In this document: piece after piece, positions 22,232 to 62,593 of the stretch
Numbering within the stretch: position 1 is the first letter of the stretch
How the letters are laid out: each line of letters opens with the position of its first letter
Source: Candidatus Omnitrophota bacterium
GTDB lineage: Bacteria; Omnitrophota; Gorgyraeia; Tantalellales; Tantalellaceae
Length of the DNA stretch: 64,000 bases
Assembly: GCA_014728075.1 (NCBI GenBank)
Contig: WJMG01000075.1
Span: 4,262 to 68,261, forward strand
Direction: 5' to 3'
Notes under the pieces: generated by a model
What the model was told of the DNA's origin: nothing
Database searches by the model: none
What the model saw: the letters and a program-made list of their open reading frames with translations, nothing else
Translations under genes and position numbers: made by a program

Positions 22232-22370
22232 ACAACAAAAGAACTCCCTGCTTTTTCCGCGCAGGGAGTTCTTTTGTTTTCTCCTCCCTACGCCGGCATT
22301 AACCGGATCAGGTCAACGGGTAATCCGACTTCATCGGAACTCTCAGAAGGACCAGCCTCCTCCCCGGGAT
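22232..22370 (-). ncRNA. TPP (thiamine pyrophosphate) riboswitch with terminator expression platform
   Basis: Minus-sense sequence carries the conserved GGGGAG...CUGAGA...ACCC...UGACCUGAUCCGGUUAAUGCCGGCGUAGGGA core. It is followed by hairpin AAAAGAACUCCCUGC/GCAGGGAGUUCUUUU plus a U-rich tail, about 80 nt upstream of thiS. Confidence 0.85.
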
Positions 22371-22505
22371 ATCTTTTTTTTCACATATTATAAAGGACCT
22401 CCCGGTCATATCCTGTCGAGCGGCCTTTATCCAAGACCTCAAAAAAACCGAAGATCCTCAAATGAAATTAGACCATAATACTACAGTAAAGTCAATATAT
22501 TGATA

Positions 22506-41440: not shown

Positions 41441-42148
41441 TCACTTTTTACCGCCCGATATCTCGAAGGACAGTATAACGGCCTCTGCCACTTCCTTCAT
41501 GGAAATACGCTTGTTCATGCTGGACTTCCTCAAGAGCTTGTATGCCTCGTCCTCGGAAAGGTCCTGCTGCCTCATCAGAATACCCTTTGCTTTCTCGACC
41601 TTTTTCCTGGTCTCGAGCTCTTCCTGGATCACTTTGGTCTTTACCATCAGTTCTGTATTCTCTATCGCTACAGCCGCCTGGTTGGCGACGGCGCTCAGAA
41701 GTTCAATATCACTTTTGGTAAAATCGTGTTTCTCGACCGTGTAAACATTTATAACGCCTATGACCTTTTCCTTGACCATCATAGGCACGCTTAACATCGA
41801 AATAAGGCCTTCTTTCTTCGCGAGCTGCTTTTCCTTATACCTGTCGTCCTGGGAAACATCCTTTATAACAAGCGGCTCGGCTTCTTCGGCTACCAGGCCC
41901 ACTATACCCTCCCCCACCTTTATGGCCCTTTCTTTCAGATATTCCTGGCTCATTGCCTGCGTTGCCCTTATCCTGAGTTCCCCGGCTTCTTCGTCGAGAA
42001 GCCAGAGAGCGCATATTTCGGCCCCCATGACACCCGCGGTGAGATTAACGATCAGCTTAAGTATATCCTCGAGGTAAAGGTCGCTGGTTATAGCGTGGCT
42101 TATCCTGGTCAAGGTCGAAAGATATTCTTTTTCAGAAGATTTCGGCAT
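41441..42148 (-). CDS. GAF-ANTAR RNA-binding antitermination regulator
   Basis: 235 aa; N-terminal GAF domain, C-terminal ANTAR motif (AKGILMRQQDLSEDEAYKLLRKSSMNKRISMKEVAEAVI). Confidence 0.8.
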   Translation of the reverse strand: MPKSSEKEYLSTLTRISHAITSDLYLEDILKLIVNLTAGVMGAEICALWLLDEEAGELRIRATQAMSQEYLKERAIKVGEGIVGLVAEEAEPLVIKDVSQDDRYKEKQLAKKEGLISMLSVPMMVKEKVIGVINVYTVEKHDFTKSDIELLSAVANQAAVAIENTELMVKTKVIQEELETRKKVEKAKGILMRQQDLSEDEAYKLLRKSSMNKRISMKEVAEAVILSFEISGGKK

Positions 42149-42306: not shown

Positions 42307-44400
42307 TTACATCATGAAGAGCATTTCCGCGTAAGACGGGAGCGGCCAGATCTCGTCCGGAAGAAGTTCTTCCAGACGGTCGACGGCTACTCTGAGCTCG
42401 TTCATAGCGTCTATCTTTTCGGAAGCCTTGCCTCCAAGAGCGGCTTCGAGTTCCTTTATACCCTTGAGCATCTTCTCGGTCTCGCCGCCTACTTCCTTGA
42501 GAAGGTCCATAGTACCGTCCGACTTGCACCCGCATGTTTTCATGTCATCTATGGTCCCCGCGAGCGAAGACTGGTACTCCAGGGCTATGGGAACTATCAT
42601 TGTCCTGGCCATTTTGAGCGCGACACTGGCTTCGATAGTAATGGTCTCTTCATACTGCTCCTCGTAGATATCGTGCCTTGAAGCCAGCTCCTCGGGTGTG
42701 AGGACTTTATGTTTCTTGAACATCTCGATCACTTTAGGATCTTTTGTAGCTTCGAGAGCCGCTTCGGTGTTCCTCAGGTTCGGAAGCCCTCTCTTTTCGG
42801 CTTCCTTGTGCCAGTCTTCGGTATAATTATCACCGTTGAAGAGTATTCTTTTATGTTTTTTGACTATACCCTGAAGCACGACCTGTAGAGCTTCGTTAAA
42901 ATCCTTACCGGATTTCACATCAGACTCGAGTTCCGTGCATATCTCATCGAGAGCATCCGCGACTATAGTGTTAAGCACGATGTTAGGCCCGGCGCAGCTC
43001 TGGTTGGATCCCGGCGCCCGGAACTCGAACTTATTCCCCGTAAAGGCGAAGGGGCTCGTCCTGTTCCTGTCAGTCACATCTTTGGGAAGCTGCGGCAGGG
43101 AATCCACCCCGAGTTCAAGGAGATCCGCCTGCTTTGAGCTTTTTGCGCCACCCTTTTCTATCTGGTCGATTATATCCGTAAGCTGGTCTCCCAGAAATAT
43201 GGACAGTATCGCCGGCGGAGCCTCGTTAGCGCCCAGCCTGTGGTCGTTACCGGCGGTAGCTACCGAAGCTCTAAGCATCGGCGCGTTAGTATCGATCGCC
43301 TTCATGAGCGCGCATATCATGGTAAGGAACTTGGCGTTCTCGTGCGGATTATCCCCCGGGGAAAGCCAGTTCTTGCCGTCCGGACCGACCACCGACCAGT
43401 TGTTATGCTTACCCGATCCATTGACCCCGGCGTATGGTTTTTCGTGAAGAAGGCATACAAAACCGTGCTTTTCCGCCACCTTTTTCAGCGTCTCCATACA
43501 TATCATGTTGTGATCTATCGAAAGGTTCTGCTCCTCAAAAACCGGAGCTATCTCGAACTGCGCCGGACAGACCTCGTTGTGACGGGTCTTTGCCGGTATA
43601 CCCAGCCTCCAGAGCTCCCTGTCCAGATCGTCCATAAAGGACATGACCCTTGTCCTGATAGCTCCGAAGTAATGATCGTCCATCTGCTGGTGTTTAGCCG
43701 GGGCGCTGCCGAAAAGGGTCCTTCCCGTCTGTATCAGGTCAAGCCTGGCTTCGTAAAACGACCTGTCGACAAGAAAATATTCCTGTTCGGGGCCGAGGGT
43801 GGCGTAAGCTCTCTTGTCTTTAGTGTCTATACCGAAAAGCCCAGCCAGGCGGCATACCTGTTTTGAGAGAGCCGCGACCGACCTTAAAAGAGGTGTCTTC
43901 TTGTCAAGCGCTACCCCTGTATAGGAATAGAAAGCCGTCGGGATGCACAGGGTCGCCCCTATTTCCCCTTTCTTTATGAAAGCGGGCGAAGTCGGGTCCC
44001 ATGCGGTATACCCTCTGGCTTCGAAGGTAGCCCTGAGCCCTCCGGACGGAAAACTTGAAGCGTCCGGCTCGCCTTTAATAAGCTCATTGCCGGAAAATTT
44101 CATAATAACGCCGCCTTCCTGGTCCGGCTCTATGAAAGAATCGTGTTTTTCGGCCGTCGCCCCCGTGAGCGGCTGGAACCAGTGGGTAAAATGGGTCGCG
44201 CCCTTAGCGACCGCCCAGGTCTTCATGGCGTCGGCGACCTCGTCGGCTATGGAAGGGTCTATCGTCTTGCCTTCCTTTATTGTCGCGATAAGCGAACCAT
44301 ACGCTTTTTCCGAAAGGTAATTGCGCATGTTCTTGATGCTGAAAACATTCTCGCCGTAAATATCCGCTACCGACCTTACTCCCATTTCTTCCTTACACAT
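42307..44400 (-). CDS. glnN: glutamine synthetase type III
   Basis: About 697 aa from MCKEEMGV (AAGGAGG Shine-Dalgarno sequence); length and conserved segments typical of GSIII (GlnN). Confidence 0.9.
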   Translation of the reverse strand: MCKEEMGVRSVADIYGENVFSIKNMRNYLSEKAYGSLIATIKEGKTIDPSIADEVADAMKTWAVAKGATHFTHWFQPLTGATAEKHDSFIEPDQEGGVIMKFSGNELIKGEPDASSFPSGGLRATFEARGYTAWDPTSPAFIKKGEIGATLCIPTAFYSYTGVALDKKTPLLRSVAALSKQVCRLAGLFGIDTKDKRAYATLGPEQEYFLVDRSFYEARLDLIQTGRTLFGSAPAKHQQMDDHYFGAIRTRVMSFMDDLDRELWRLGIPAKTRHNEVCPAQFEIAPVFEEQNLSIDHNMICMETLKKVAEKHGFVCLLHEKPYAGVNGSGKHNNWSVVGPDGKNWLSPGDNPHENAKFLTMICALMKAIDTNAPMLRASVATAGNDHRLGANEAPPAILSIFLGDQLTDIIDQIEKGGAKSSKQADLLELGVDSLPQLPKDVTDRNRTSPFAFTGNKFEFRAPGSNQSCAGPNIVLNTIVADALDEICTELESDVKSGKDFNEALQVVLQGIVKKHKRILFNGDNYTEDWHKEAEKRGLPNLRNTEAALEATKDPKVIEMFKKHKVLTPEELASRHDIYEEQYEETITIEASVALKMARTMIVPIALEYQSSLAGTIDDMKTCGCKSDGTMDLLKEVGGETEKMLKGIKELEAALGGKASEKIDAMNELRVAVDRLEELLPDEIWPLPSYAEMLFMM

Positions 44401-44448
44401 GACTACCTCCTTGGATTGTATGACACACACTAAATTTTACTCTTTTTC

Positions 44449-44584
44449 GCCTGAAAAAGAAAGAACATCCTTTCCGGGCCGCTATAAAAGAAGCCTTAAA
44501 AGGATGTTCTTCCCTGAACTTCCCGTTTATCCCTCACAACAAAGTGGGGGTAAAAAGAAAAGGCACTCCCGTAAAAGGAATGCC
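44449..44584 (-). promoter_or_regulatory. glnN leader with two terminator-like hairpins (candidate attenuator)
   Basis: Hairpin 1 GGCAUUCC-uuuuac-GGGAGUGCC plus UUUUCUUUUU (44551..44584). Hairpin 2 AGAACAUCCUUUU...AAAGGAUGUUCUU plus UCUUUUUC (44449..44510). Confidence 0.5.
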
Positions 44585-44690
44585 TCTTTGCTTTCAAATC
44601 CGCACTGCTTCGTGCAGTTTTTATTTTACCCTATTCCTGAATTTTGTCAACATCTTTTTTTGCCCGCTTTTCCCGCTTCTTCTGCCTGCC

Positions 44691-45392
44691 TTTTGTACCG
44701 GGTTCCGACCCCACTTTGTACCGGGTACGAACATAAAGCTGTAGCTGTCCCCTCAGTTTTTTGAAAGAATTACATCAAAAAAGTTGTATCTAATAGTGAG
44801 GGGGGATATTTATACGATCGTGTAAAAATCAACACAACCAACAGGAGGTGCTCAAAATGTCCAGAACGAAAAGAATACTTATCGACAACAGTTATTACCA
44901 CATAATAAACAGGGGAAATCGAAAAAAAGAGATCTTCAAACATGGATCAGATTACAGGCATTTTCTCTCTCTACTTAAAAAGGCGAAGAAAAAACATAAA
45001 GTAAAGATAAACGCTTACTGCTTAATGCCGAACCATATACATATCATCGCTTATATCCGGGAAGCAAAGACCATCTCCAGCTTAATGCACTATGTTTCCC
45101 GAAATTACGCCTCGTATTTTAATTCCAGATATGAAAAAGTAGGCCATCTTTGGCAAAGCAGGTTCAAGAGTTATCCTCTTCTCACGGAAGAATATTTGAT
45201 ACATGTGGCCAATTATATTGAAATAAACCCGGTAAAAGCAAAGATAGTGGATGACCCATCAAAATACACCTGGAGCAGTTACAATGAAAGATGCCTTATG
45301 CAAAAACAGTATCTTCTGGATCCTATTACGGTATAGGGACAGGTACAAGTTCAGATCGGTACCCGGTACAAAGCTGACACGGTACCCGGTAC
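44691..45392 (+). mobile_element. REP-RAYT-REP unit (REP-associated tyrosine transposase flanked by inverted REP sequences)
   Basis: IS200-like Y1 transposase ORF bracketed by inverted copies of a ~45-bp element GGGGACAG(G/C)TAC..-N8-GTACCCGGTACAAAG. Confidence 0.7.
44857..45336 (+). CDS. REP-associated tyrosine transposase (IS200/IS605 TnpA-like, Y1 HUH)
   Basis: 159 aa from ATG 44857 (AGGAGG Shine-Dalgarno sequence); HUH motif NHIHII and a downstream Tyr-containing helix (YVSRNYASYFN). Confidence 0.8.
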   Translation: MSRTKRILIDNSYYHIINRGNRKKEIFKHGSDYRHFLSLLKKAKKKHKVKINAYCLMPNHIHIIAYIREAKTISSLMHYVSRNYASYFNSRYEKVGHLWQSRFKSYPLLTEEYLIHVANYIEINPVKAKIVDDPSKYTWSSYNERCLMQKQYLLDPITV

Positions 45393-45399
45393 TGTTTTG

Positions 45400-45714
45400 T
45401 TACTTCCGTATCATCACCAGCACCATCTTAACCCTTTCCGGCGCACTCACGGAATGAGGGACATCCGCCGGCATTATTATGGACTCGCCCGCCGATAGCC
45501 CGTGCTTCTCACCGGCTATGGTGACTTCCGCGCGGCCGTCCACCACATTGACAAGAGCATCGAAAGGCGCGGTGTGCTCACTGAGCCCCTGATCCTTGTC
45601 AAAAGCGAAAACCGTAACGGTACTTTCCTTGTCTATTATCGCCCTGCTGACCACGGACCCTTCCTGGTAATCTATAAGGTCGCCGTATTTGAACACTTTA
45701 GCTTTTATATCCAT
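45400..45714 (-). CDS. cupin domain protein
   Basis: 104 aa from MDIKAKV (AAGGAG Shine-Dalgarno sequence); conserved-barrel cupin pattern (G...H..P.D). Confidence 0.65.
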   Translation of the reverse strand: MDIKAKVFKYGDLIDYQEGSVVSRAIIDKESTVTVFAFDKDQGLSEHTAPFDALVNVVDGRAEVTIAGEKHGLSAGESIIMPADVPHSVSAPERVKMVLVMIRK

Positions 45715-45805
45715 TTCAACTCCTTTCCACAGCGTCGAGCGTAAAGAAAACCCCGCCGGTCCGATACGGCGATACATCTCACCTCTTCAAGCTGAACGCT
45801 AAGGG

Positions 45806-47721: not shown

Positions 47722-49062
47722 TTATACGAACTTTACATCCAGAAGATGGCAGGAGCAGGAAATGCAGGGATCGTAAGCCCTTACCAGCATTTCCGAGAGA
47801 AGCGTTATCTCCTCTTCCGACTTGCCGATGATCTCCGGTATCAGCTTCTTCATATCAAGGTCCACATTGGCAAGGTTCTGGTTCGTTGGTATACAGCAGT
47901 TCGCTTCGGTAACCACGGCTTTTTCGTCGGCCGTGTAGTCGTGGATAAGAAGGCCCCTCGGCACTTCCACGGCGCCTACTCCCCTTCCCTTCTTCACTTT
48001 GAAAGAAGGCCATTCGTCCCTGGTGGGCCAGGATGTCACAACATCATCGTAATCCACCCCGTTCTCCAGGAAATGGTCTATTATCCTTATCGCGTCGTAA
48101 GTACAATGCGCTATCTCGACCACCTGGGCTACGGTGTTCATGAACGGGTTGTAACAGGGAGCCTTCAAGCCCAGCTCTTCCGCGACGGCCTTGGCCTCGT
48201 CGTTAAGCTGTCCGCTGTTTATATTGAACCTCGCGAGGGCACCCACCATGTAGGAGTCCCGCTTGTTACGCGAATGCTTGGCCGTTGAATGGGCGGCATG
48301 GTACTCGTGGACTATTTCCATATAGTCCCCGGGCTTTACCGTGCCCGAAATATCGCTCGTCGTAAGTTCCCCTTCGTAGAACGCGTATTCGTCGGGATGC
48401 GTTAACGCCACATATTCCGTCTCCCTTTCGAAGTCGGGAAGCTTCACGGATTTGAATATCTCGACTGTCTCTTTCAGGTCGTCAAGCTGCCCGGTGAAGA
48501 TCTCCTTCATCTTTTCCAGTTCTTTTTTCGAAGGCAGCTTGGTCCACCCCCTCGGGCATACGCTGATAGGATGGGTATGCCTTCCGGCCATTATATCGCA
48601 CATGTCACTGTACTGGCGTTTCATACGAAGAGCCCTAAGCACCACATCTTTATGGGTCTTTATGAGAGGGACCACGCTCGGAGCCCCGAGCGCGTCCGGA
48701 GCCACCAGAAAATACGCGTGAAGAAGATGGCTGTCAAGGGTCTCGAGGTGAAGTATCAGCTTCCTGAAAAGTTTGGTCTGCTCGCTCACCTCGTAGCCCA
48801 TGGCCCCTTCCGCGGCCTGCACCGAGGCCATGCAATGGCCCGTCGAACAGATACCGCATATCCTGGAAGTTATATGCTGGACCTCAAAAAGGGACCTTCC
48901 TCTTACCATGGCCTCGAAAAAGCGGGGCGCCTCGACTATTTCCAACTGGCACTTTTCCAGCTTCCCCTCTTTCACATTGACCACGATGTTCCCGTGGCCC
49001 TCCACCCTGGTTATATACTCGACATTTATGTTCAGGTCTTTTTTGGCAAGTTCTCCGCTCAT
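47722..49062 (-). CDS. hydA: [NiFe]-hydrogenase large subunit, group 3 (sulfhydrogenase alpha-like)
   Basis: N-terminal RICGICSTGH and C-terminal DPCISCSCH Ni-binding motifs (Cys, not Sec) followed by a short cleavable extension. Confidence 0.9.
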   Translation of the reverse strand: MSGELAKKDLNINVEYITRVEGHGNIVVNVKEGKLEKCQLEIVEAPRFFEAMVRGRSLFEVQHITSRICGICSTGHCMASVQAAEGAMGYEVSEQTKLFRKLILHLETLDSHLLHAYFLVAPDALGAPSVVPLIKTHKDVVLRALRMKRQYSDMCDIMAGRHTHPISVCPRGWTKLPSKKELEKMKEIFTGQLDDLKETVEIFKSVKLPDFERETEYVALTHPDEYAFYEGELTTSDISGTVKPGDYMEIVHEYHAAHSTAKHSRNKRDSYMVGALARFNINSGQLNDEAKAVAEELGLKAPCYNPFMNTVAQVVEIAHCTYDAIRIIDHFLENGVDYDDVVTSWPTRDEWPSFKVKKGRGVGAVEVPRGLLIHDYTADEKAVVTEANCCIPTNQNLANVDLDMKKLIPEIIGKSEEEITLLSEMLVRAYDPCISCSCHLLDVKFV

Positions 49063-49829
49063 TTCTTCTCAGCCTCCTTTTCGGCGTCCATCCTGCACCT
49101 GTTGTAGAGATCGAACTTTTCGGTGATATCGTCTATAGTGTACCCGTACTTCTCGAGAAGCTCGGTCTGTCCCTGCTCGGCGGGATCATCGAGCAATCCC
49201 CGGCAGGAATAACAGGTATTCCCCCAGCTCGGGCACCAAGCGCCGCATCCGGCCCGGGTCACCGGCCCCATGCATACCTGCCCTTTCTCGAAAAGACAGA
49301 CATTCTCCTTGAGCTTACACTCGACGCATACCGGATAATCCGGCGGGGTATATCCCTTGCCGAGAAGGATGCTCTTGACGGCCTTAATGGTCTCGTCGTT
49401 ATTGCTGGGGCAACCGTGTATGAAATGATCCACCTTCACCACTTCGTGGACAGGCCTCGGCCAGCCCGCCTCCAGATGGGAATCTCTTCCCTTGTAAACG
49501 ATCTCTTTAGCTTCTTCGTCGGAAAAACGCCTCCTCAGGCCGTTAACTCCCCCGAGCGAGGCGCACGATCCGTAGGCAATTACTATCTTGGCGTTCTCCC
49601 GTATCTTCCTGACCCTTTCCTCGTCGTGTTTCCGCGTGATCGAGCCTTCCACAAAAGCTATATCGTATTCGTCGCTGCGCTCTGACATCGCTTCCCGGAA
49701 ACTCACTATTTCGCAGTGCTCGAGGAGGCCCAGAAAATTCTCGTTAAGATATGTCAGCTGCAGCTGACATCCTTCGCAGTCCGCGAAATCAAAAAACGCT
49801 ATGCGCACTTTCTTTTTATCTTCGCTCAT
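49059..49829 (-). CDS. hydD: [NiFe]-hydrogenase small subunit, group 3 (delta)
   Basis: 256 aa; N-terminal proximal-cluster motif (FADCEGCQ), no Tat signal, so a cytoplasmic enzyme. Confidence 0.85.
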   Translation of the reverse strand: MSEDKKKVRIAFFDFADCEGCQLQLTYLNENFLGLLEHCEIVSFREAMSERSDEYDIAFVEGSITRKHDEERVRKIRENAKIVIAYGSCASLGGVNGLRRRFSDEEAKEIVYKGRDSHLEAGWPRPVHEVVKVDHFIHGCPSNNDETIKAVKSILLGKGYTPPDYPVCVECKLKENVCLFEKGQVCMGPVTRAGCGAWCPSWGNTCYSCRGLLDDPAEQGQTELLEKYGYTIDDITEKFDLYNRCRMDAEKEAEKK

Positions 49830-57228: not shown

Positions 57229-57267
57229 GGGGACAGGTACCGCCTTGGCTGCGTACCCGGTACAAAG
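57229..57267 (+). repeat. REP-like element copy c
   Basis: GGGGACAGGTACCGCC-N8-GTACCCGGTACAAAG; same family as the RAYT-flanking REPs. Confidence 0.7.
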
Positions 57268-57268
57268 A

Positions 57269-59101
57269 TCAAGTCCTTTTCCTTTTTCCCAGGAGTATAA
57301 TGTCCCTCAGGCCGGCCTCGTCCTCCGCATCCATCCATTTTTTCTCAAACGCGGGATCTTCCACTATCTGGGCAATGGCGGAGAGCGCCCTCAAATGAAA
57401 AGGCCTTTCGTCCCTGGACCCTGCGATAACGAAAACCGCGTTCACACCGCTGTGGGCTCCGGGAAAGAAAATACCCTGCCGGCACCTGGCGATAAAAAGC
57501 AGGAACTGGTGCTCGCCGTTAACTATTATATGCGGAATGGCCAGTCCGGGCTTGAGCACGGTACTTGCCTGCTCCTCCCTGTCAAGAAGAAGCCTGAAAA
57601 CCTCCGAGGGAGAACAGTCCAGGCGACTGGCTATCTCGACGGCTATATCCCGAAAAAAATCCTCGGCGGTCATTTTGTTCGGTATATCGACCACGACACA
57701 TTCCTCGACTATCCTGTCAAAACGGTCTTTTTCTATATTATCCCTCTCCCTTATAATATCCCTCAGTTCCGTTTCAAGCGAGATATCCATGAACTCCTTG
57801 GCCGCGACCCTTTCGATAAGGTGCAGAAAAGCGAAATCTTTTTTTCCTCTCTGTCTTCCGTAGAACCAGTAAACGCTTAGGCCCGCCGCGAAAAGAAAAG
57901 ACCCCAGTATGAGCGCCGCTTTGCCTATATTAACTACCAGAAGCCAGCAGCCGAAAACACCGGCTATCTGCAGCCAGGGATAAAAAGGCGCCCTGAATTT
58001 GGGCTGGTAATTACGCACACCGCTTTCCCTCATAACTATTACGCACAGGCAGGAAAATATAAAGGTGAAGATCAGGACCGTAGAGGCTACTTTCACCAGG
58101 AGATCGAGTTTAAGGAAAAGCGCGCTTGCCATAAGTATTCCGGTAAGAAGAATAGCCGCGAAAGGTGTGCTTGTCTTCCTGTTTATCTTACCGAAGGCTG
58201 GAGGAAGCAGCCTGTCCCGGCTTAAAGCCAGCGGATAGCGTGAAGCAGACATTATCCCGGCGTTGGCCGTTGATATAAAAGCCAGTATGGCGGCAAAACC
58301 CAGAGCGATCCTTCCCGGGTGGTTTAAAAAGGCTTCCGCGCCGTCGGAAATAGGCGTCAGCGACTTGTCAAGTTCCCCGGAATCCAGAACCCCGCTTGTA
58401 ACATAGACCACAAGAGCGTAAACCACCGTTATCAAAACAAGAGAAAGTATCATGCCTCTGGGCACCGTCTTTCCGGGATCCTGCACCTCTTCAGCTATGC
58501 TGGCTATCTTCAAAAGGCCTCCGTAGGATACGAACACGAAACCGGCCGCGGAAAAAACGGGCACCATGCCGTACGGCGCGAAGGGTCGCAGGTTCGCGTG
58601 ATCTACCGCGGGAAACCCTTTCACTACATAAAAGGACAGTATACCGAGAAGAAGCACCACTATCGCTACCTGCACGCGGCTGGCTTCTTTTACTCCTACA
58701 AGGTTCAACGCGACAAAAAGCACACAAAGGCCAAGAGCGATGTATTTGATATCCCAGGGAACCACGGCGGAGGTAAAGGCCGCCATCCCTATAAGGGCGA
58801 AAGAGCTTTTGAGAGTTATGGACATCCATGTCAAAAGACCGTTTATGGTGCCGAGGGCGGGGCCCATGCTCCGTGTAACATAAAAATAGGTCCCTCCCGC
58901 CCTGGGCATAGCGGAAGCCAGTTCAGCCTGGCTGAGCATACCTGTCATAGCCAGAAGTCCCGCGAGCAGATAAGACACTATAACGGCCGGTCCCGCCATC
59001 GCGTGCGCAAGACCGGGAAGTATGAAAAGGCCCGAGCTTATCATCGCGCCGGAAGCGATACAGAAAACATCCAGCAATTTCAGTTCTCTTTTGAGTTCCA
59101 T
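57269..59101 (-). CDS. APC-family amino acid permease fused to a C-terminal PTS EIIA(Ntr/Fru type-2)-like domain
   Basis: 12 TM helices from MELKRELKLLDVF; C-terminal soluble domain with the LAIPH active-site-His context of PTS_EIIA_2. Confidence 0.7.
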   Translation of the reverse strand: MELKRELKLLDVFCIASGAMISSGLFILPGLAHAMAGPAVIVSYLLAGLLAMTGMLSQAELASAMPRAGGTYFYVTRSMGPALGTINGLLTWMSITLKSSFALIGMAAFTSAVVPWDIKYIALGLCVLFVALNLVGVKEASRVQVAIVVLLLGILSFYVVKGFPAVDHANLRPFAPYGMVPVFSAAGFVFVSYGGLLKIASIAEEVQDPGKTVPRGMILSLVLITVVYALVVYVTSGVLDSGELDKSLTPISDGAEAFLNHPGRIALGFAAILAFISTANAGIMSASRYPLALSRDRLLPPAFGKINRKTSTPFAAILLTGILMASALFLKLDLLVKVASTVLIFTFIFSCLCVIVMRESGVRNYQPKFRAPFYPWLQIAGVFGCWLLVVNIGKAALILGSFLFAAGLSVYWFYGRQRGKKDFAFLHLIERVAAKEFMDISLETELRDIIRERDNIEKDRFDRIVEECVVVDIPNKMTAEDFFRDIAVEIASRLDCSPSEVFRLLLDREEQASTVLKPGLAIPHIIVNGEHQFLLFIARCRQGIFFPGAHSGVNAVFVIAGSRDERPFHLRALSAIAQIVEDPAFEKKWMDAEDEAGLRDIILLGKRKRT

Positions 59102-59267
59102 GTCTTGAATCCTTCCGAATATTTTTAACGGCAAACATTAAGAAGATCTTAGCTGGAGGTCATAGCCGTTTGGAAAGCGTCAAAGTGTCATCCCTCGGCC
59201 TAACCTCGCTTGTGTCAAAGTGTCAAAGTAAAACCAGACGATAGAATCACATATTCAAGGCACAGTA

Positions 59268-59445: not shown

Positions 59446-60180
59446 ATGAATAAGCTAAAAGAACTTTCGGTATTTTTTCCCGCGTACAACGAGGAAGGCA
59501 ACATAAAGGATACGGTTTCAAAAGCCCTTTCCTTTCTGCCCGATATCTCGGAAACCTTCGAGGTCATTATTGTCAATGACGGCTCCATCGACGGTACGCC
59601 ACGCGTAGCCGGGGAGCTCGCGGCGGAATTCCCTCAGGTCAGACTGGTAAACCATGACCATAACAGGGGCTACGGAGCAGCTGTGCGAACGGGTTTTTCC
59701 GAATCCAGATACGGCTATATCTTTTTCACCGACGGGGACGGCCAGTTCGATATCCGTGAACTGCGGGATTTTCTCCCCCTTATATCCGAATGCGACATCG
59801 TAGCCGGATACAGGATCAGACGGAACGACCCTTTCTACCGCCTGATAAACGCGAAAGCGTACAACCTTCTGGTCCGCCTGCTCTTCGGGTTAAAAGTCCG
59901 TGATATAGACTGCGCCTTCAAGATAATAAGGAAAAAAGTAGTTGATTCCCTTGAACTCAAGAGCGAAAGCCAGTTCGTAAGCGCCGAGTTCCTGGTCAAA
60001 GCCCGAAAAAAAGGCTTCACCATAAAACAGAAAGGCGCTCACCACTTTCCCCGCAAGGAAGGGGCTCCCACGGGTAACAGCATATCTGCGATAGTGAATT
60101 CCTTCCGTGAACTTTTCGCTCTGCGGGGAGAGTTGTCGCGAAAGGAAAACAATGAAAATTCTCAGGGCTTACGAAAATAA
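59446..60180 (+). CDS. family 2 glycosyltransferase (polyprenyl-phosphate sugar transferase, DPM1/ArnC-like)
   Basis: FFPAYNEEGNI ... VIIVNDGSIDGT ... DGDGQ motifs. Confidence 0.85.
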   Translation: MNKLKELSVFFPAYNEEGNIKDTVSKALSFLPDISETFEVIIVNDGSIDGTPRVAGELAAEFPQVRLVNHDHNRGYGAAVRTGFSESRYGYIFFTDGDGQFDIRELRDFLPLISECDIVAGYRIRRNDPFYRLINAKAYNLLVRLLFGLKVRDIDCAFKIIRKKVVDSLELKSESQFVSAEFLVKARKKGFTIKQKGAHHFPRKEGAPTGNSISAIVNSFRELFALRGELSRKENNENSQGLRK

Positions 60181-61531
60181 GATCTCGCCGGACATTCTGA
60201 TCATCCTCACGGTCTCTTCGATCGTTCTCTTATGGAACCTCGGAACCGGCAGCCTGTGCTCATGGGACGAAGGATTATACGGCGGGGTTACCCGTGAAAT
60301 AATACATACGGGTAACTGGATAGACCTTAGGTGGGCCGGGCAGCCCTGGAGCGATAAACCCCCTCTTTACATGTGGGTAACGGCTCTTTTCTCGAGGGTC
60401 CTAGGATTAAATGAGTTGTCCGTAAGGTTGTTTTCGGCGCTTGCCGGCGTAGGGACGGTTCTGCTCACTTACCTTACGGCTCTTAAGCTTTACTCCAGGA
60501 AAGAAGCCTTTTCCTCAGCCCTGGTCCTTCTTTCAACCTGGGCTTTCCTATGGTCCTCTAAAATGGGCATGCTTGACATTCCCATGACCTTTTTTATCGC
60601 GCTCGCGATATGCCTTTTCGAATACGGAAAAGACAACAGGCTATGCCTTTTCCTCTCCCCTCTGGCTTTTACGGGAGCCTTCCTGACCAAAGGTATGGGC
60701 GCCATGCTCATACCGCTGATACTGGGGCTTTATATCCTTATATCAGGCAGGATAAAAATCCTCAAAGACCCGGCTCTGATCTGCGGTACTATTACCGCTC
60801 TGGCGCTTTCGGCGATATGGCCTCTCGCGGCCGCGGGAGCTTACGGCAAAGAGTTTATCGATGACTATTTCCTAAAACATCTGGTCACCAGGACAACAAA
60901 AGCCGTTGAAGGCCACACGGGAGGGCTCTTCACCTATTTCGGCGTTCTGCCTAATAAGGGGCGGCCATGGGCAGGTATAGGCCTCGCCCTCTCTCCTCTG
61001 CTCATCTGGAGGACCATACGCTTCCGCGAAAAAGAGCACCTGCTTCCGCTCGTGTGGACCTTTACAGTGCTTCTTCTCTTCAGCGCGGTCCGCACCAAAC
61101 TGCACTGGTATGTGATGCCCGTCTACCCGGCGCTGGCGATCATCACCGGATGGGGCGCCGCAAAGCTCTTGAAAAGCCGCGTTTTCATAATGATGCCTCT
61201 TCTCTGCGCCCTTTCTCTTTTTTATCTTGCGACGGAAAAAAACATCTTTGATCTCGACTATTCCCCGGAGACAAAAATGTTCGCCGAAAGCGCTTTGAAC
61301 CTCGGGGAATGCGGCAAACCTCTCTATGCCTACAAGGTCAGCGATCCGGGGCTTCAGTTCTACCTGACCGGAAAAACGCTTCGCGTATACGATACCGAAA
61401 AGATAAAATTAACGATGAGATCCGGCAAGAATTATGTGGTCACGAACAGAAGAGAACTTAAACACCTGAAAGGCGAGCCTTACAGCATTGTACTCGAAGA
61501 GGATAACTTCGTGCTGATACGGAGTGAGTAG
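60152..61531 (+). CDS. GT-C family glycosyltransferase (family 39 / ArnT-PMT-like)
   Basis: About 460 aa, multi-TM; first periplasmic-loop motif SWDEGLYG and downstream KPPLYMW. Confidence 0.8.
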   Translation: MKILRAYENKISPDILIILTVSSIVLLWNLGTGSLCSWDEGLYGGVTREIIHTGNWIDLRWAGQPWSDKPPLYMWVTALFSRVLGLNELSVRLFSALAGVGTVLLTYLTALKLYSRKEAFSSALVLLSTWAFLWSSKMGMLDIPMTFFIALAICLFEYGKDNRLCLFLSPLAFTGAFLTKGMGAMLIPLILGLYILISGRIKILKDPALICGTITALALSAIWPLAAAGAYGKEFIDDYFLKHLVTRTTKAVEGHTGGLFTYFGVLPNKGRPWAGIGLALSPLLIWRTIRFREKEHLLPLVWTFTVLLLFSAVRTKLHWYVMPVYPALAIITGWGAAKLLKSRVFIMMPLLCALSLFYLATEKNIFDLDYSPETKMFAESALNLGECGKPLYAYKVSDPGLQFYLTGKTLRVYDTEKIKLTMRSGKNYVVTNRRELKHLKGEPYSIVLEEDNFVLIRSE

Positions 61532-61551
61532 CCGGTTTACCGCCGCAACCG

Positions 61552-61588
61552 TTGTACCGGGTACGAAGGCAAGGCGGTACCTGTCCCC
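61552..61588 (-). repeat. REP-like element copy d (inverted relative to copy c)
   Basis: Reverse complement reads GGGGACAGGTACCGCCTTGCCTTCGTACCCGGTACAA. Confidence 0.7.
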
Positions 61589-61606: not shown

Positions 61607-62593
61607 TCACATGAACCTGATCTTCTTTCCGGCACCCCGCTTGAGCGCCTTTCTGTAGATAAGGTCAGCTACAACTATATCCTGCACAGCCAGCCCGGTG
61701 GAATCAAATACGGTTATTTCTGTTTCTTTAAGCCTTCCTTTCTTTTTTCCTGATACTATCTCCCCTATATCAGCATATACATTTCTCCTTGTAATGCTCT
61801 TTCTCCGCAGCGGAACATTGATCTCCCCGCTATGGGAAGCCTGCTCCCATGAGTCCACCACAAGCCTCGAATGCTTAAGGATAGACGGCTCCAGCTCCTG
61901 TTTCCCCGGGGCGTCGGCGCCTATGGCGTTTATGTGAGCGCCTTCTTTAAGCCAGGAAAGCTTCACGATGGGCTTTCTGGCGGGTGTCGTCGTCACTATT
62001 ATATCGGCCCCTTTTACACATTCCCGAGGGGTCCCCGCAGGCAAAAGATCAACACCTCTTACCTTTACGCTGCTGCAGAAGTTTTCGGCCTCTTTGCCGG
62101 TTTTTCCCCAGACCCTCGCCTCCTTAATGACGCGAACCGCCGCAAGCGCTTCCAGCTGTGAACAAGCCTGTCTGCCGCATCCAACGAGAGCGACCGTCTC
62201 CGAGGCCTTTGCCGACATATATTCGGCAGCGACCCCGCCCGCGGCTCCCGTCCTCAGCGCGGTCGCGAGAGTAGCGTCCATAACCGCCAGGGGGAAACCA
62301 CTACGGGGGTCGCTCAATATCATGAGCCCCATGACCGTGGGGAGCCCCTTTCTCCTGTTCCCGGGATGCACATTGACCCACTTTATTCCGGCCCTATCCA
62401 CCGCTTCGTCATATACGGGCATGGCCCTCAGGTCTCCGTTGTGTTTTTTGAAGTACAGATAAACTTTAGGCGGCATCTGGACCTTTCCTCTTCCGTAATC
62501 CTTAAAACCCTTTTCCACTGCCTTTACGGCATCTTTTATAGAGACCAGTTTTTTTATCGTTTTCTGATCGATGATAAGAGTGTGTTTGTTCAT
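61607..62593 (-). CDS. ornithine cyclodeaminase / mu-crystallin family protein
   Basis: 328 aa, NAD-binding VGCGRQA motif, OCD/mu-crystallin sequence pattern. Confidence 0.75.
   Translation of the reverse strand: MNKHTLIIDQKTIKKLVSIKDAVKAVEKGFKDYGRGKVQMPPKVYLYFKKHNGDLRAMPVYDEAVDRAGIKWVNVHPGNRRKGLPTVMGLMILSDPRSGFPLAVMDATLATALRTGAAGGVAAEYMSAKASETVALVGCGRQACSQLEALAAVRVIKEARVWGKTGKEAENFCSSVKVRGVDLLPAGTPRECVKGADIIVTTTPARKPIVKLSWLKEGAHINAIGADAPGKQELEPSILKHSRLVVDSWEQASHSGEINVPLRRKSITRRNVYADIGEIVSGKKKGRLKETEITVFDSTGLAVQDIVVADLIYRKALKRGAGKKIRFM

Follow-up and report, generated by a model that had tools for sequence, protein, structure and literature searches.

The locus at positions 44691-45392 of the window, by which we mean the whole 64-kb stretch of DNA that was analysed, is probably a TIRtron, that is, a host-resident (domesticated), single-copy Y1 HUH enzyme of the TIRYT branch together with functionally linked, cognate non-autonomous repeats. 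The enzyme itself is a tail-less Omnitrophota member of the TIRYT/TIRtron class, which has been described but is little studied. Its small gene is bracketed by inverted arms of a modular repeat, and further copies of this repeat are found elsewhere in the window and in related lineages.

Enzyme Gene and Genomic Context

The enzyme gene is flanked on the left by glnN, which encodes a type III glutamine synthetase (42307-44400, minus strand), and on the right by a convergent cupin gene (45400-45777, minus strand). The gene and the two repeat arms that enclose it comprise the following features.

44691-44752, minus strand: left inverted arm (nhmmer E 7e-11)
44752-44741, minus strand: head of the left arm, GGGGACAGCTAC, followed by a 12-nt spacer
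44728-44718, minus strand: core of the left arm, GTACCCGGTAC, followed by a 12-nt spacer
44705-44695, minus strand: degenerate core of the left arm, GAACCCGGTAC, followed by AAAAG
44753-44856, plus strand: 5′ region of the enzyme gene, from the head to the ATG, about 104-105 nt
44857-45336, plus strand: ORF of the TIRYT-type Y1 HUH enzyme, 159 aa, with ATG start and intact reading frame
45335-45392, plus strand: right inverted arm (E 3.5e-11)
from 45335, plus strand: head of the right arm, AGGGACAGGTAC, overlapping the TAG stop of the enzyme gene by 2 nt and followed by a 12-nt spacer
45359-45369, plus strand: core of the right arm, GTACCCGGTAC, followed by a 12-nt spacer
45382-45392, plus strand: second core of the right arm

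A ribosome-binding site, AGGAGGTG, is located at 44843-44850, 7 nt before the enzyme ATG. The promoter scan made no confident call in the 5′ region (44753-44856), and the Rfam search found no family in or near the enzyme locus. A database protein 100% identical to the ORF product bears the label “hypothetical protein GF408_06430”. An earlier, sequence-only reading of this DNA had described the gene as the only one on the plus strand in its region, and this is indeed the case: it is the sole plus-strand gene amid ~24 consecutive minus-strand genes, the long ORFs from ~34.8 to ~59.1 kb being otherwise all on the minus strand.

With 36.7% GC against 51.4% for the window (sd 3.7% in 480-nt windows), the enzyme ORF is the lowest such stretch in the 64 kb. 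This suggests either foreign origin or unusual constraint, and it is more in keeping with a recent horizontal acquisition than with long domestication. The gene neighbourhood also differs in each lineage examined and, taken together with the low GC, this means that the whole unit may have arrived horizontally. As for signs of mobility, the window holds one copy of the enzyme gene, the eight contigs with the homologue P0035 all represent one locus, and in the contigs examined each homologue has a single locus. No tnpB is present nearby. Among 72,556 plasmids, just 30 carry a distant relative, in all cases below 40% identity, and one phage record has one.

Protein Fold and Active Site

The window protein matches the Pfam family Y1_Tnp (PF01797; E 4.6e-16) and, barely above its cut-off, the NCBIfam model REP_Tyr_transpos (80.6 bits, cut-off 80), which bears out the earlier proposal that the gene encodes a Y1 HUH enzyme of the RAYT superfamily. 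With the NCBIfam IS200 model it reaches 22.6 bits, below the cut-off of 55. E. coli TnpArep (4ER8) is its only sequence match in the PDB. The same structure is the best PDB fold match of the AlphaFold model (pLDDT 89.9, with 33 homologues as input), at a TM-score of 0.78 across 159 columns, i.e., the whole length. The TnpA proteins of IS608 and ISDra2 reach a TM-score of only about 0.55, and the top 30 Foldseek PDB matches of the model are all Y1 transposases.

The active site was assigned by alignment to E. coli TnpArep, whose catalytic residues are H59/H61, Y115 and N119 (PMC3479197). The HUH motif is H60-I-H62 (N59-H60-I61-H62), which aligns to H59-M60-H61 of E. coli. The catalytic tyrosine is Y120 in YIEINP, which aligns to Y115 and lies within a predicted helix (112-122). 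NHIHII had been named correctly as the HUH motif (H60 and H62) in the sequence-only reading; the stretch YVSRNYASYF, offered there as the tyrosine motif, belongs to a non-catalytic region. Other motif residues are W99-Q100 as well as N124 and P125 of YIEINP. Across 33 homologues of 40-59% identity, H60, W99, Q100, Y120, N124 and P125 are invariant, and H62 is kept in 32 of the 33. All catalytic motifs are present in the window protein, and the fold predicted for it is that of TnpArep.

The likeness to the E. coli TnpArep/REP/BIME REPtron (4ER8; PMC3479197; Nunvar 2010, PMC2817692) extends from the predicted fold to the HUH motif and catalytic tyrosine at equivalent positions, the Y---NP motif, and the arrangement of a single-copy gene between inverted extragenic repeats, which are also dispersed and able to cluster regularly. 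On the other hand, the two proteins are 24% identical, and neither H123 nor the C-terminal E161 region of TnpArep has a counterpart in the window protein, where A128 stands at the position of H123. The repeats differ as well: the window units have neither the GTAG tag nor the bulged hairpin of REP, and repeat clusters here are direct 23-bp tandem arrays, whereas the REPs of TnpArep alternate in orientation. With the TnpA proteins of the IS200/IS605 family (IS608, ISDra2), the window protein shares the HUH/Y1 catalytic core and, judged from this core, would be expected to share the ssDNA chemistry. Unlike that family, it carries Y---NP instead of Y---Q, and its locus has no subterminal left-end and right-end hairpins, has no tnpB and is not multicopy.

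Assignment to the TIRYT Branch

Class 2 TnpA-Y1 proteins, which are RAYTs in the broad sense, are distinguished from IS200 by the signature Y---NP in place of Y---Q (Quentin 2018, PMC6006769). The window protein displays this signature as Y120-I-E-I-N124-P125. Class 2 genes are also characterized by few copies per genome; the 64-kb window has one. Subclass 2.1, which equals Bertels group 1, is characterized by the motifs NHVH, W[EQ] and YIELNP, a median length of 238 aa and an HTH-like C-terminal tail (Quentin 2018, PMC6006769). Its members are the TIRYTs of Di Nocera et al. (2013), and their flanking inverted repeats share GGGGWSAS (PMC3733652). In the window protein, the TIRYT motif set NH[VYF]H / W[EQ] / YIELNP reads NHIH / WQ / YIEINP, with one conservative difference in each of two motifs.

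BLASTP comparisons were made with reference proteins taken from Additional file 5 of Di Nocera 2013 (PMC3733652). Nine main-group TIRYTs gave 30-39% identity and 97-125 bits, while the canonical RAYTs (E. coli b228, S. maltophilia 2816 and P. fluorescens 4255) gave 21-24% and 41-48 bits. Because both bits and identity are far higher for TIRYTs than for RAYTs, we regard the window protein as TIRYT-type. Its best similarity among known systems is thus to the TIRYT/TIRtron class (PMC3733652; subclass 2.1, PMC6006769; group 1, PMC5581495), with gbm 2474, dau 2153, gsu 2396, sml 4509 and others in this range, and it shares with TIRYTs the motifs YH(I/V)xNRGN, CLMPNHxH, GHLWQxRFK, Y(I/V)ExNP and WSS. 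At positions typical of RAYTs, the RAYT-specific N-terminal Thr of E. coli aligns to Ile16 of the window protein, and the RAYT motif NP(L/V)(R/K)xG reads NPVKAK; many homologues read NPVRAG.

The window protein, at 159 aa, ends with the core, and the published TIRYTs transcribed from Additional file 5 measure 216-238 aa. The closest ~90 database clusters, mostly from Omnitrophota, are also ~160 aa long, so the short form is a clade feature rather than a recent truncation. Tail-bearing homologues of 202-223 aa occur at 43-45% identity to the window protein. Unlike the published TIRYTs, therefore, the window protein and a large Omnitrophota clade of ~160-aa proteins have no HTH-like C-terminal tail ending in GRPKK. 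A literature search found no biochemical study of any TIRYT, and the class is little mentioned.

Architecture and Copies of the Repeat Unit

The claim made from the sequence, that inverted repeat copies enclose the gene, is confirmed by the two arms (44695-44751 and 45336-45392), which are 57 nt long, 75% complementary and 584 nt apart. From the gene outward, each arm is built of a head, GGGGACAG(G/C)TAC, a 12-nt spacer, the core GTACCCGGTAC, another 12-nt spacer and a second core, and the cores stand in 23-bp phase, one module being a spacer plus a core. The dimensions first put forward, an element of ~45 bp with an 8-nt spacer between head and core, need revision: each arm of a head and two cores spans 58 nt, and the spacer measures 12 nt.

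As in TIRYT loci, the 3′ end of the gene extends into one of the flanking repeats; the outer end of this repeat, the right arm, is 7 nt short of the stop codon (45400) of the convergent cupin gene. The inverted flanking repeats also share GGGGWSAS with those of TIRYT genes. The left head, GGGGACAG, fits this consensus, and the right head, AGGGACAG, departs from it at the first G, owing to its overlap with the TAG stop. In the window units the GT[AG]G tag is missing, and GTAC stands in its position.

A profile of the 39-nt unit detected exactly four full units in the 64-kb window, each with E ~1e-11.

44714-44752, minus strand: full unit in the left arm
45335-45373, plus strand: full unit in the right arm
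57229-57267, plus strand: solo unit of head, one core and AAAG (E 2.5e-11), intergenic, abutting the stop of a permease/EIIA gene (57269-59134, minus strand)
61550-61588, minus strand: solo unit of head, one core and AACG (E 8e-12), between the convergent 3′ ends of 60107-61531 (plus strand) and 61607-62593 (minus strand)

Allowing at most one mismatch, the core GTACCCGGTAC has 12 strand-matches in the window against 0.68 expected, and none of 100 shuffles reached 12. The pattern TGTACC-N23-TGTCCC, one-mismatch matches counted, occurs 5 times against 0.16 expected. The repeat is dispersed; uniqueness of the element to this locus, which the sequence-only reading had named as a finding that would speak against it, is thus not observed. 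A fifth exact match to TGTACC-N23-TGTCCC (49139-49173, plus strand) lies inside a coding ORF of the hydrogenase cluster (49059-49829, minus strand; Oxidored_q6 domain), at about residues 219-231 and outside the Pfam-matched part. Its spacer is unlike that of the other units, and the match may be due to chance or be an intragenic relic.

Both TIRYT repeats and those described here form a moderately abundant dispersed family of singles, dimers and clusters. The present family differs from known TIRYT repeats in being modular, with a head and up to five cores in 23-bp phase. Quentin et al. detected no REP-like repeats for subclass 2.1 (PMC6006769), whereas a dispersed repeat family is evident here.

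Repeats in Related Lineages

Repeats were sought in a collection with one genome per species (596 Gb) and in a metagenome scan. The head-spacer-core arrangement was found in two other Omnitrophota MAGs, at four loci in STC_70 and three in SO_2017_LW3_37, and the metagenome scan gave three matches, two of which are the same sites as L005 and L007. All 11 head-bearing sites in STC_70, SO_2017_LW3_37 and the metagenome contigs are situated between ORFs. At head-bearing sites of the relatives, the 23-bp module is present one to five times in tandem, and the flanks retrieved with these solo arrays contained no enzyme gene. One locus is represented in two data sets with identical flanks (L005:6895-7021 and L018:about 320-400), and the two versions are 46 bp, or two 23-bp modules, apart; the difference could be a real unit-precise change, replication slippage, or short-read assembly collapse of the repeat. 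A head and core with an 8-nt spacer in Geomonas edaphica (L002:2121-2151), in an 8-kb locus with no enzyme gene, was treated as a chance match, since ~1 random match is expected for the pattern in 596 Gb. Geobacter and Geomonas species carry TIRYTs (gbm 2474).

The link between repeat and gene was followed across the loci of eight homologues with 43-52% identity (L009, L010, L012, L019, L020, L023, L027 and L028). In L009, L010, L012 and L028 (47-52% identity), the gene is bracketed head-inward by TGTACC-N23-TGTCCC units, and the gap between TGTACC and TGTCCC is 23 in every such match, with 18-26 permitted in the search. L019 and L027 have the outer box GGGACG at 22 nt instead. L023, the locus of a tail-bearing enzyme, carries inverted GGGGACAGGCAACTTT repeats whose heads point outward, and the L020 locus has no such repeat beside the gene. 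Tandem TGTCCC boxes are spaced 23-24 nt, and the distance between the last TGTCCC box and the start codon is 62-65 nt in four lineages, compared with 105 nt in the window. Apart from the repeats, the enzyme gene is antiparallel to both neighbours, within co-oriented housekeeping runs, in seven of nine lineages (the window, L009, L010, L012, L019, L027 and L028), L020 and L023 being the exceptions.

Folding of the Repeats

As ssDNA, the four window units have predicted folding energies of −4.3 to −7.8 kcal/mol (z −0.6 to +1.0 versus shuffles). This is the level of shuffled sequence, and we therefore do not regard the window arms as stable hairpins of the classic REP kind. Several copies in relatives are predicted to be more structured. 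These include a perfect 34-nt two-core palindrome (L008:4791-4828; −22.7 kcal/mol, z −6.3), a solo hairpin in L019 (z −5.7), and head-to-head inverted doublets in L028 (4800-4930; about 1400-1460), for which long hairpins are predicted (−24.7 kcal/mol, z −4.9). By this prediction the L028 doublets are REPIN-like: they are arranged like the gene flanks but lack the enzyme gene, and the likeness to REPINs (Bertels and Rainey 2011, PMC3116915) lies in these inverted doublets. Unlike REPINs, the solo copies of the window are singlets, and the enzyme falls outside RAYT groups 2 and 3.

No stem is common to the homologous lineages; the two boxes and their spacing are kept instead. Because boxes and gap recur across lineages in this way, the two boxes and the ~23-nt register, and not a hairpin, are the conserved features. 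Furthermore, as the window units lack stable hairpins, recognition here probably proceeds more via linear sequence than in the classic REP, and a mechanism that relies on hairpins, as in known Y1 enzymes, may not apply to units devoid of significant ssDNA structure.

Position Relative to the glnN Promoter and Leader

An 11/12 sigma-70-like promoter, TTGACA-16 nt-TAAAAT, is located at 44650-44623 (minus strand), between the outer end of the left arm (44691) and the glnN start (44400); transcription of glnN is predicted to begin near 44616. Alignment of the upstream regions of L025 and L026, whose GlnN proteins are 88% and 85% identical, shows similarity from ~44662 towards glnN, a stretch that takes in the promoter and ribosome-binding site as well as one small and two terminator-like hairpins. 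Beyond ~44662 there is no similarity to L025 or L026, the neighbouring genes differ, and neither relative has such an element upstream of glnN. As the left arm is separated from glnN by the promoter and the entire leader, both of which are kept in these element-free relatives, the element stands upstream of the conserved promoter and not inside the glnN leader, where it had been placed initially. It does not interrupt the leader, so no effect on glnN attenuation is to be assumed; it may still act on more distant upstream sites or on transcriptional read-through out of the cupin gene. Inspection by eye found no sigma-54 promoter for glnN. A search among the closest glnN relatives (85-88% identity) found no empty insertion site; these have other upstream genes, so that the comparison does not define the insertion boundaries.

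The glnN leader (~215 nt; region 44403-44650, minus strand) has features of its own, all kept in L025 and L026: a small hairpin at 44619-44604, and terminator-like hairpins with T-runs at 44588-44558 and 44511-44461. A GAF-ANTAR regulator gene (41441-42148, minus strand) lies just downstream of glnN, likewise in L025 and L026, which suggests that glnN is under ANTAR-type antitermination control. The leader has no Rfam family match. Elsewhere in the window, a TPP riboswitch (RF00059) was found at 22268-22376 (minus strand; 73.3 bits, E 1.5e-12).

Proposed Mechanism and Alternative Explanations

E. coli TnpArep cleaves and rejoins REP single strands in vitro (PMC3479197). By analogy, the window enzyme would recognise the ~35-nt unit via its two conserved boxes at fixed spacing, Y120 would nick ssDNA to form a 5′-phosphotyrosine link, and the enzyme would then rejoin the strands. 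Strand transfer of this kind may seed new solo units and add or remove 23-bp modules. We infer the action of the enzyme on these repeats from its kinship with TnpArep. A more specific proposal is that the tail-less Omnitrophota enzymes read the linear bipartite site TGTACC-N23-TGTCCC with a 23-nt ruler, rather than a hairpin, and drive unit-precise gain and loss of 23-bp modules; we consider this rather unlikely.

Several other explanations of the locus can be weighed against the TIRtron. In a classic REPtron, a canonical RAYT of the E. coli/Pseudomonas type would bind a GT[AG]G-tagged REP hairpin and spread REPs or REPINs. In canonical RAYT systems (subclasses 2.2 and 2.5), the repeat is a stable imperfect hairpin whose 5′ foot bears the GT[AG]G tag (Nunvar 2010, PMC2817692). 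Such repeats usually exceed 100 copies in a genome; the 64-kb window has two solo units. The window units do open, on the other strand, with GTAC followed by a 7-bp imperfect stem (CGGGTAC...GTACCTG), and true palindromic copies exist in the relatives L008, L019 and L028; yet the GT[AG]G tag is absent, the four window units are not folded more stably than shuffled sequence, and it is the boxes and spacing, not a stem, that are conserved among lineages. Likewise, the protein scores just above the cut-off of REP_Tyr_transpos and has E. coli TnpArep as its closest solved structure, but its identity to canonical RAYTs (21-24%) is lower than that to TIRYTs (30-39%), the RAYT Thr is replaced by Ile16, and NP(L/V)(R/K)xG by NPVKAK. 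Inverted dispersed repeats flanking the gene would be found under this explanation as well, which on balance is very unlikely. Of the arrangement named in the sequence-only reading, a classic REP-RAYT-REP, one part stands, namely a RAYT-superfamily enzyme between inverted dispersed repeats; the word “classic” does not, in view of the TIRYT affinity, the GGGGWSAS heads, the missing GT[AG]G and the folding at the level of shuffles.

It is also conceivable, though unlikely, that the 700-bp gene with its inverted ends is an autonomous insertion sequence of the IS200/IS605 type or similar, mobile and recent, the solo units being MITE-like derivatives or scars. Such an origin would agree with the inverted repeats that bound the unit, with an ORF GC 15 points under its surroundings, with a different chromosomal neighbourhood in every lineage examined, and with the standing of Bertels group 1 as the most IS-like RAYT group after group 6 (PMC5581495). 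It is at odds with Y---NP in place of the IS200 Y---Q and the sub-threshold IS200 score (22.6 bits, cut-off 55), with one gene copy in 64 kb and no tnpB, with solo units outnumbering gene copies, and with the near absence of relatives from plasmids and phages. Moreover, with heads directed towards the gene and outward-running arrays that vary in length, the element has no defined termini. Lastly, the repeats might be host cis-elements, either terminators or 23-bp-spaced sites for a host protein, functionally unlinked to an enzyme that is adjacent by coincidence. This we regard as most improbable: the bipartite unit brackets the gene, inverted, in five independent lineages with different neighbours, its variable part changes together with the protein, and in four lineages a constant 62-65 nt separates the head from the start codon. 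In its favour are the extragenic position of all copies, most of which abut gene 3′ ends, the terminator-like site that a scan calls in the right arm, and the recurrence of the 23-bp phase (in core arrays, in the TGTACC-TGTCCC gap and in tandem TGTCCC boxes), which resembles a protein-binding register on duplex DNA. A TIRtron with enzyme and repeats functionally linked is the explanation that we prefer.

Implications

In the annotation of the source genome, a gene called “hypothetical protein” can be recognised as that of a RAYT-family enzyme. TIRYTs (subclass 2.1, group 1) form the largest branch of the RAYT superfamily. If the reading of a linear site holds true, it would mean hairpin-independent recognition for a Y1 HUH enzyme and would provide the first mechanistic handle on TIRYTs. 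The locus and its relatives constitute a compact test case, combining a minimal, tail-less enzyme of 159 aa, a precisely spaced two-box repeat and natural variation in module number. Although ordinary as a class, they offer a convenient entry to an unstudied group of enzymes.
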